A stretch of DNA of 7,097 nucleotides from a virus. The notes under the pieces are model-generated. The model was not told the DNA's origin, ran no database searches, and worked only from the letters and a program-made list of their open reading frames with translations. Shown here piece by piece: positions 662-1,088 of this stretch. The stretch spans positions 1-7,097 of the IMG/VR virus record IMGVR_UViG_3300013869_000036. One strand, 5' to 3'. Each line of letters begins with the position of its first letter. Within the stretch, counting starts at the first letter, position 1. The translations under genes were made by a program, and so were the position numbers.

Positions 662-838
662 TCACCGAAGGCGTGTGCGATGAAAAGCTTCAGCTAGATC
701 GAGAGAGCGGCGTTCTTCTGCCTTCTCAATGCAGTCAATGCAAATGTAAGGGTCGACAGGATCGCCGGTAGTGAAAACCTCATCGTCATCGCCGAGACAG
801 CCGCAATAGCTACAAGCTTGGACAGTGGGCTTAACCAT
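662..838 (-). CDS. 58-aa small protein with ClpX-type C4 zinc-ribbon motif (not in ORF track; below length cutoff)
   Basis: My translation is MVKPTVQACSYCGCLGDDDEVFTTGDPVDPYICIDCIEKAEERRSLDLAEAFHRTRLR. CSYCG-(x19)-YICIDC resembles the ClpX N-terminal zinc-binding domain CSFCG-(x17)-YICDEC (recalled). Its ATG (838-836) overlaps the end of the upstream ORF (ATGGTTAA), indicating translational coupling. Codon usage is like the neighbouring genes. Confidence 0.6.
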   Translation of the reverse strand: MVKPTVQACSYCGCLGDDDEVFTTGDPVDPYICIDCIEKAEERRSLDLAEAFHRTRLR

Positions 839-1088
839 CGATCAAATCCCCCTGGCCGGTCTTTTCGAGTAACTGAGCAGCCGAGGCACGGGCCTGCTCG
901 ATGATGTTGCGGAGGCGGCGAATCTCAGTTTTCTGGCTTTCGATTACGGTGCGAAGATCGCGGATTTCGGCAGCGAGGTCAGGGGCATCGAGAGCAGCAA
1001 ACAAGAAAGCCTTACTAGCGACACGCTCGCCGGAATGAATCTTGAGCCTATCGACCTGCACTTGATCAGCTTCGAACTTAATAAGCAT
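831..1088 (-). CDS. 85-aa hypothetical protein with C-terminal coiled-coil (first gene of the accessory operon)
   Basis: The track ORF is 831-1148. I prefer the internal ATG at 1088, which is preceded by GGAAAGG 7 nt upstream. The 20-aa extension from ATG 1148 (MVWYHFPPRGTNLVERKGTK) would run through the operator palindromes. The heptad-like segment is AAEIRDLRTVIESQKTEIRRLRNIIEQARASAAQLLEK. I recognise no family. Confidence 0.6.
   Translation of the reverse strand: MLIKFEADQVQVDRLKIHSGERVASKAFLFAALDAPDLAAEIRDLRTVIESQKTEIRRLRNIIEQARASAAQLLEKTGQGDLIDG

Follow-up and report, generated by a model that had tools for sequence, protein, structure and literature searches.

In CTXphi, attP is located in ig-1, rstR is opposed to rstA, the ctxAB cargo follows zot, and tandem prophages form at dif. 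Among the filamentous phages of Pseudomonas, small accessory proteins with effects on the host or on competing phages are known. PfsE of the Pseudomonas Pf inoviruses confers superinfection exclusion through type IV pili (PMC8764522), PftP4 is a membrane peptide of 33 amino acids (aa) encoded downstream of zot (PMC11769263), and superinfection exclusion was obtained from two of the ten hypothetical inovirus proteins tested in another study (PMC6813254). The integrase-less Pf groups (PMC10675462) are the same kind of phage as the one analyzed here, which is represented by a stretch of 7,097 nucleotides (nt) from the IMG/VR record IMGVR_UViG_3300013869_000036 (hereafter the window). This window is a filamentous phage genome, complete or nearly so, in which the minus strand encodes nearly all genes. 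Our subject is a pair of overlapping genes, orf85 and orf58, which follow zot and attP, as an earlier note made from the sequence alone had placed them. That note knew of no described function for such a pair, and none was found for either protein. The reading favored here, which we give a somewhat better than even chance of being right, is that, in a dif-integrating filamentous phage of the CTX type, the pair joins a regulatory gene and a cargo gene in one module. The product of orf85 would bind a repeat array, and orf58 would be a cargo gene coupled to it in translation, with no dedicated two-protein machine.

The orf85 gene, its downstream slot, and its repeat array

The alternative start of orf85 gives a 105-aa protein, which merely adds translated GGTACC repeats, and the family members begin with MLIKF; the 85-aa start is therefore correct. 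The protein falls in phrog_8031 (E 4e-14), and a profile search found homologs in 207 or more clusters, none of which is annotated or has a Pfam domain. The hosts of this family are Pseudomonas, Stutzerimonas, Ectopseudomonas, Metapseudomonas, and Azotobacter, and the phages are dif-integrating inoviruses of Pseudomonadaceae. Related loci (numbered with the prefix L) were searched with a 13-sequence alignment as the query. Every locus examined has orf85 after zot and attP and before a reverse-oriented regulator gene and rep, and this placement is kept despite different Rep types, different coat genes, and a secretin gene in one phage. The gene co-travels with the block of attP, origin, repressor, and rep, while the structural genes are exchanged. 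Pseudomonas phage NEU2023 (L002, PQ144888.1) has an unannotated 86-aa orf85 homolog on the plus strand (6184–6444), together with four GGTACC repeats. The record annotates instead a 168-aa open reading frame (ORF) on the opposite strand (6037–6543), which is probably spurious.

Both orf85 and orf58 are real genes on the minus strand at the positions given in the earlier note. The orf58 gene begins within the 3' end of orf85, which gives an overlap of 8 nt (ATGGTTAA, 831–838), and a Shine-Dalgarno sequence (GGGGGA, 846–851) is present 8 nt upstream of the orf58 ATG. The overlap and this GGGGGA have the layout of a translational coupling junction. When positions 1–1500 of the window were compared with L013 by BLAST, 1–661 matched at 94% and 835–1329 at 79%, with no match for 662–834. 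The breakpoints are identical in L009, L015, and L016, which places the borders of the cassette at 661/662 and 834/835. The slot was then surveyed in about 50 loci by scoring any ORF that starts 8 nt before the end of the orf85 stop codon (ATGGnTAA or ATGGnTGA). Its occupants are the zinc finger (about seven loci), an unrelated cysteine-rich 63-aa protein (two loci), hydrophobic or membrane peptides of 37–85 aa (about ten loci), and another protein (two loci); about 20 loci, including that of NEU2023, have no such ORF. The junction and its offset of -8 are kept in every filled slot.

The slot after orf85 is thus optional and interchangeable. Four different cargo proteins are found behind orf85 copies that are more than 90% identical, and orf58 itself is also found behind an orf85 that is only 45% identical to the one in the window, in a phage that differs in its Rep and its structural genes. 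Such an interchangeable slot argues against a specific complex of the two proteins or a toxin-antitoxin (TA) pair. It favors a cargo cassette that relies on the orf85 transcript and its terminating ribosomes. The earlier note had described a partnered two-gene accessory operon and proposed that co-occurrence of the pair be checked in other inoviruses. That description is not borne out, given that orf85 occurs with or without a downstream gene and that near-identical copies precede unrelated cargo; only orf58 is cargo. In terms of morons, the site of orf58 is fixed and its flanks are conserved in related genomes, where the gene is replaced or missing. By the classical definition of a gene with its own promoter and terminator, it does not qualify, having no separate promoter and relying on the orf85 transcript.

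Four copies of (T)GGTACC(A) are present between attP and orf85, spaced by 44, 33, and 44 bp and forming two inverted pairs, with the last copy 3 nt before the orf85 ATG. The whole window has four GGTACC sites compared with 0.97 expected, and all four are within 127 nt. The same array is found upstream of orf85 in the relatives, with invariant GGTACC cores and variable loops and spacers, and it is kept in phages with three unrelated repressor types. All 42 distinct loci that encode proteins starting with ML[IVL]K[FLI] contain two or more GGTAC[CT] in the 230 nt upstream (three or more in 37 of them), and none has GTTAGCA; the loci with two copies have an extra gene between the pairs. Three distinct loci encode a protein with a different head, MPTIMIRH. 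These loci have no GGTACC and instead have four to six copies of GTTAGCA/TGCTAAC with the same 44-bp pair spacing, embedded in otherwise homologous spacer DNA. In one of these three loci, L085, the head is a 70% match to that of L081 (MPTIMIRH), but the tail is nearest to a MLIKF-type member (55%), which indicates that the repeat motif tracks the head rather than the lineage.

Since a different head goes with different repeats, orf85 probably encodes the binding protein of the array, with the N-terminal 25 or so residues reading the repeats. This head (MLIKF...G..VASKA) is followed by a long helix or coiled coil (residues 26–84). An AlphaFold2 (AF2) model has residues 1–8 extended or unstructured and helices at 9–19 and 26–84, and the long helix may serve to oligomerize the protein. 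The C-terminus is the most conserved part of orf85, whatever the partner. The coiled coil noted earlier is therefore predicted again, as one part of a protein that appears to bind repeats.

Two side observations concern the composition of the array. In L022 (5247–5462), L024 (4668–4883), L033, L040, and L041, an extra 71-aa gene (MVLKFTDDVTTFHRIDVDG...) is located between or inside the repeat pairs. The repeats that flank this gene are GGTACT rather than GGTACC, and the site is a second insertion point in the array. In L026 (627–720) and L027 (4638–4742), a second set of three GGTACC, spaced by 44 and 44–55 bp, is located downstream of the slot, such that the array brackets the orf85 operon in these two loci.

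The position of the repeats suggests how such a protein may act. A putative -10 hexamer overlaps the third GGTACC repeat, and the fourth repeat adjoins the orf85 ribosome-binding site, which makes autorepression the simplest mechanism. The corresponding -35 element is weak in the window (TAGGAA, 1157–1162) and better in relatives, where it reads TTGACG, TTGAAG, or TTGAGT. In this mechanism, orf85 would be a small oligomeric DNA-binding protein, of which the head recognizes the four TGGTACCA repeats that separate attP from the orf85 ATG and the long C-terminal helix supplies oligomerization. It would most likely repress its own promoter and thereby set the expression level of the gene coupled behind it, with orf58 translated by coupling to the orf85 end. 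The protein may also function in replication or at the neighboring attP.

Several points weigh against this reading. The N-terminal part of the orf85 model has a predicted local distance difference test score (pLDDT) of only 53–65. No similarity between orf85 and known DNA-binding folds was found by Pfam (in which the matches are coiled-coil noise), Foldseek, or PDB profile search. In hhalign, a 73-sequence orf85 profile reached a probability below 1% against nine ribbon-helix-helix (RHH) proteins (with unverified sequences) and orf69, no better than shuffled controls. The covariation between head and repeats involves only three loci with the second head type. The promoter was read by eye from the alignment, and a consensus promoter scan found none upstream of orf85. 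Hairpins are also predicted for the GGTACC pairs in the packaged strand, so that for this type of motif a cis-acting role in single-stranded DNA (ssDNA) is possible. Finally, the presence of membrane peptides in the same slot is no proof that orf58 has the same kind of function. As for the fold, reading orf85 as an RHH protein, with MLIKF, G20, and S25-K26 set against CopG, was unsupported by Pfam, PDB profile search, Foldseek, and hhalign, and it is retained as an analogy only.

The orf58 protein and alternative explanations

For orf58, dN/dS (the ratio of nonsynonymous to synonymous substitution rates) in the frame is 0.04–0.29 across five natural variants, which indicates purifying selection and bears out the ORF, whose disruption in related phages would have counted against the earlier note. 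The motif CSYCG...YICIDC described in that note is present, with the putative ligands C9, C12, C33, and C36 in a spacing of C-x2-C-x20-C-x2-C. These four cysteines are unchanged in six orf58 variants, whereas Cys14 varies. Taken together, the dN/dS values and the four fixed cysteines indicate that orf58 is a real gene. It is also a near-orphan accessory gene as judged from database searches. Its relatives form one cluster (78% identity) among the 1.84 billion representative proteins searched exhaustively with phmmer and two clusters in a word-indexed search of 5.8 billion proteins, and 185,579 species genomes yielded none. The gene is present on three IMG/VR contigs, and the slot census added a fourth contig with a 55-aa variant.

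The AF2 model of orf58 was built from a shallow alignment of three sequences and has a pLDDT of 78. It contains two knuckle hairpins and a helix (residues 34–57), a generic treble-clef-type fold of a four-cysteine zinc finger, in which zinc binding is predicted from the ligands, with a C-terminal helix. The protein is acidic, with about 12 D/E compared with 7 K/R, a net charge of about -5, and a DDDE patch between the knuckles. This negative charge argues against DNA binding, and for a small acidic protein with one zinc site and a helix, binding to a protein would suit better. In view of PfsE, PftP4, and the other small accessory proteins mentioned above, orf58 is rated as a candidate effector of the lysogenic-conversion or exclusion type. 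It would most likely bind a host or competitor protein, and the membrane peptides in the slots of sister phages would serve the same general role.

ClpX offers the only specific target hypothesis for orf58, and a ClpX-related partner is considered unlikely. Under the alternative explanation proposed in the earlier note, which is unlikely as well but survives best, orf58 is a free copy of the N-terminal zinc-binding domain (ZBD) of ClpX. As a decoy, it would form heterodimers with ClpX N-domains or titrate adaptors or substrates (e.g., the SspB tail), and thus alter degradation by host ClpXP or stabilize a phage protein. Consistent with this, zf-C4_ClpX (PF06689) is the top Pfam match of orf58 and the sole family common to all six variants (E 0.054–0.17; 0.17 for the protein in the window). 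The NCBIfam ClpX model covers the same residues (E 0.15), and in the PDB profile search, ClpX (6sfw_O; residues 8–42 of orf58 against 12–44; E 0.78) is the sole match that spans the full domain in a single stretch. Superposition of the AF2 model covers the whole ZBD 2ds5_A, with a template modeling (TM) score of 0.70 normalized to the 43-residue target and a root-mean-square deviation of 2.2 A over 41 columns. In addition, hhalign between the orf58 profile and the E. coli ZBD (sequence verified against 1OVX and 2DS5) gave a score of 25.0, compared with a mean of 12.8 (sd 2.9) for shuffles that keep the cysteine columns. Only 1 of 300 shuffles attained the observed score, such that the similarity exceeds the shared cysteine positions. 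The hhalign probability against orf58 was below 15% for the C4 fingers of DksA, TraR, YacG, Ogr, and Com; these sequences, as well as the B. subtilis and M. tuberculosis ClpX in the comparison, were unverified. Furthermore, orf58 is acidic and ends at a stop codon after 58 aa rather than preceding a ClpX AAA+ module, in agreement with the earlier note, and no AAA+ gene is present in the window. In the viral structure library BFVD, only uncharacterized small phage zinc-ribbon proteins match the orf58 model, two of which (ranks 45 and 49; 58–63 aa; similar fold) are labeled as Clp ATP-binding subunits.

On the other hand, every database-scale score is non-significant. The zf-C4_ClpX match has 12.2 bits compared with a gathering threshold of 27, a result that the earlier note had itself named as counting against ClpX-family membership. 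No ClpX was found at E<=1e-3 among the 1.84 billion representatives with orf58 as the phmmer query. Foldseek against PDB gave nothing at E<=1e-3 for orf58, with 2ds5_A at rank 8 (E 1.8) in a list of assorted treble-clef fingers (FYVE, RING, ZAD, and ribosomal). The loop between the cysteine pairs is two residues longer than in the verified E. coli ClpX (C-x2-C-x18-C-x2-C). The shuffle test was targeted and post hoc, the hypothesis having been formed after the motif was seen, and AF2 with three sequences may be pulled toward the known ZBD fold. Moreover, the same slot houses membrane peptides, which cannot mimic ClpX. The resemblance is consistent and extends beyond the cysteine ligands, which makes it a lead; membership in the family is not established because the similarity is never significant at database scale, the loop is longer, and the test is post hoc. 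In its boldest form, orf58 would be a free-standing mimic of the ClpX N-domain that pairs with host N-domains or captures adaptors and so switches off N-domain-dependent ClpXP in lysogens, supplied from a plug-in slot dosed by a new family of repeat-binding regulators with swappable heads. We regard this form as a little less likely again. If the weak resemblance to ClpX turned out to be genuine, orf58 would be a compact tool against ClpX N-domain functions, a claim that the present evidence does not justify.

Two further matches of orf58 were set aside. The NCBIfam match to TmcA cytochrome c3 (E 7e-4; 19 bits compared with the 114 required) is noise from cysteine composition. The PRDM9 matches in the PDB profile search consist of recurring 'PY(I/V)C-x-x-C' knuckles without a domain-level stretch.

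A role of orf58 as a zinc-ribbon co-regulator that binds nucleic acid, with orf85, on the repeats, attP, or origin appears quite doubtful. Zinc ribbons frequently bind nucleic acids, the gene is located between attP and the f1-like plus-strand origin, and the second weak Pfam match of orf58 is RecO_C (E 0.18), which contains a zinc finger. However, the net charge and the DDDE patch described above are unfavorable, and orf58 is dispensable or replaceable in sister phages with the same repeats, attP, and origin. No homology to DNA-binding zinc-finger families was found with Pfam, phmmer, or Foldseek.

About equally doubtful is the explanation that the inverted GGTACC repeats act as ssDNA hairpins, as a packaging signal or minus-strand origin, with orf85 unrelated to them and the module consisting of two hitch-hiking genes. 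The packaged strand from 1345 to 1080 is predicted to fold as three consecutive hairpins (attP, GGTACC pair 1, and GGTACC pair 2; fold z-score -6.7), and a position just after the morphogenesis genes is generally known as that of the Ff packaging signal. However, the GTTAGCA copies of the MPTIMIRH loci are mostly direct repeats that cannot pair, which means that a hairpin role is not a general explanation. Additionally, the motif varies with the protein head rather than with the structural module, and the cores are invariant with no compensatory changes in the arms. Hairpins were accordingly rejected as the sole explanation of the GGTACC pairs, given that the alternative motif occurs as direct repeats.

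The last explanation is a TA-like pair or obligate two-protein complex, with a DNA-binding antitoxin and a small toxin that stabilize the prophage or the replicative form. As is established for CTXphi integration, prophages of the CTX type should not excise, which leaves less need for addiction. Although the gene order, 8-nt overlap, small sizes, and operator-like upstream repeats are type II-like, some alternative occupants are small, hydrophobic, and potentially toxic (compare PftP4), and inoviruses hold many TA pairs with shuffled partners (PMC6813254), this explanation is very improbable in view of the roughly 20 of 50 loci with orf85 and no downstream gene, the four unrelated partners behind near-identical orf85 copies, an orf85 C-terminus that is conserved regardless of these, and the lack of any match to TA families in Pfam, NCBIfam, or PADLOC or to defense systems in PADLOC and NCBIfam.

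Genomic setting and integration

The proposed regulatory-plus-cargo module sits in a filamentous-phage genome with the features listed in Table 1. The closest GenBank relative is Phage blackswan219-1, with 78–88% identity across rep and the structural genes. Positions 367–1166 of the window have no counterpart in this phage, which is thus uninformative for comparing orf85 and orf58. The genome is mosaic. The block with attP, orf85, origin, orf69, rep, and G5P is 85–95% identical to the contigs L030, L013, and L014, and the structural genes (1335–5086) have no DNA similarity to them; L030 aligns with 1–1329 and 5087–7097 but not with 1335–5086. An Rfam scan of the whole window (E<=1) found no structured RNA.

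Table 1. Features of the window and their coordinates.
Feature	Position	Strand	Remarks
orf69	58-267	plus	opposite to rep; phrog_5642, E 8e-27
orf58	838-662	minus	58 aa, reads MVKPTVQACSYCGCLGDDDEVFTTGDPVDPYICIDCIEKAEERRSLDLAEAFHRTRLR; exchangeable cargo gene
orf85	1088-831	minus	85 aa; ATG 1088-1086, TAA 833-831
Repeat array, (T)GGTACC(A) x4	1089-1224	minus	1213-1218, 1169-1174, 1136-1141, 1092-1097
Putative -10 hexamer, TACCAT	1134-1139	minus	overlaps third GGTACC repeat
attP, CTX-type	1219-1335	minus	two inverted dif-like sites, 1219-1252 and 1296-1335 (inverted repeats I5, I6)
zot	2712-1471	minus	
pVI-like gene	3008-2694	minus	
pIII-like gene	4513-3008	minus	
Major coat protein gene	4804-4577	minus	
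Small coat genes	–	–	
ssDNA-binding protein gene	5481-5080	minus	
rep	6978-5662	minus	

The two dif-like sites of attP read CGCATAAT-CCGCCG-TTATGTTA and CGCATAAT-TGAGGCTCGGCG-TTATGTTG, with central regions of 6 nt in one and 12 nt in the other, and attP is predicted to fold as a forked hairpin in the packaged strand. Relatives are integrated at dif as tandem prophages (L003–L005 and L010), and the prophage array in L004 terminates in a canonical dif, CTTCGCATAATGTATATTATGTTAAAT. Once integrated, the orf85 module is the first element inside the left prophage end. In Stutzerimonas chloritidismutans AW-1 (L009, 8760–10930), a canonical dif-like site is found about 1.7 kb downstream of orf85, and this element may be a truncated or satellite-like remnant rather than a full prophage. 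Pf 42-1, from an integrase-less Pf group, has the same attP type, with a different regulator-like gene and its own repeats at the orf85 position. The 'RepB' label on this positional analog was unconfirmed by Pfam and was not used.

Downstream of the slot, the minus strand of 295–366 (GGTCCACCATCTCTAATGGTGGACTCTTGTCTAACGGTTAGAC) forms a block of three hairpins, including GTCCACCATCTCTAATGGTGGACTCTTG, which we take to resemble the hairpin and nick region of the f1 plus-strand origin. This block, probably the plus-strand origin, is 97–98% identical in blackswan219-1 and Pseudomonas phage NEU2023, and its identity is 82–87% in inoviruses of Vibrio cyclitrophicus and in other P. aeruginosa inoviruses. 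The neighboring 367–661 is GC-rich, non-coding, and 77–94% conserved in relatives, and it includes a terminator-like hairpin (519–556) that has a run of T on the plus strand and, on its other side, a run of A. This region sits where Ff phages carry the minus-strand origin; its ssDNA fold z-score is only -2.5, and it has no Rfam match.

The orf69 gene occupies the position of rstR in CTXphi and is likewise opposed to rep. In related phages, three unrelated small regulators are found at this position, one of which is a helix-turn-helix CI-type repressor, suggesting exchangeable immunity regions. Finally, a 54-aa ORF on the minus strand (1335–1499) overlaps the end of zot and stops just before attP; it has no family match.

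Comparison with known systems

The analysis defines a fixed, translationally coupled slot in widespread, little-studied dif-integrating filamentous phages of Pseudomonas and Stutzerimonas, and its occupants, one zinc finger, one cysteine-rich protein, and several membrane peptides, are candidates for small effectors in exclusion, toxicity, or host modulation. For phrog_8031, a large unannotated family, it suggests a testable role in sequence-specific binding of repeat arrays, with a natural specificity switch between MLIKF with GGTACC and MPTIMIRH with GTTAGCA. It also corrects an annotation, that of the orf85 homolog of NEU2023.

As in the ClpX ZBD (PF06689; 1OVX and 2DS5), orf58 has two CxxC knuckles with CS[FY]CG and YIC-x-[DE]-C-[IV] in about 40–50 residues, and it is predicted to form a treble clef followed by a helix. 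Unlike that domain, orf58 is a stand-alone protein with a longer C-terminal helix, a loop with two more residues, and sub-threshold scores, and it is an inovirus-encoded near-orphan. Compared with PfsE and PftP4, orf58 is likewise a very small, non-structural, lineage-variable product of filamentous prophages, and those two act on the host. PftP4 is encoded just after zot, and the membrane peptides in the slots of sister phages resemble the PfsE/PftP4 class. However, orf58 itself appears soluble, is acidic, has the four cysteines, lacks sequence similarity to these proteins, and is coupled to a conserved regulator rather than to zot.

Repressors of the CopG, Arc, and omega types (RHH), which bind repeats in rolling-circle plasmids and phages, are small, as is orf85, which is predicted to have an extended N-terminus followed by two helices, the first of them short. 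The orf85 protein is also tied to arrays of 7–8-bp repeats over its own putative promoter, with N-terminal residues that covary with the repeats. In contrast to these repressors, orf85 has no sequence or fold similarity to them, its second helix is a coiled coil of about 60 residues, and its DNA binding is proposed from covariation.

The overall arrangement resembles that of CTXphi. Inverted dif-like sites form attP(+), the relatives have tandem arrays at dif, the repressor-like orf69 is opposed to rep, and the cargo position is between zot and the regulatory region. The differences are that the cargo follows attP, encodes 58 aa, and is coupled to a regulator gene, and that the window has no toxin gene and no similarity to Rst proteins. 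An accessory cassette combined with a small autoregulator is of a kind already known, and what is newly delineated is the variable slot with a genuine orphan cargo gene.

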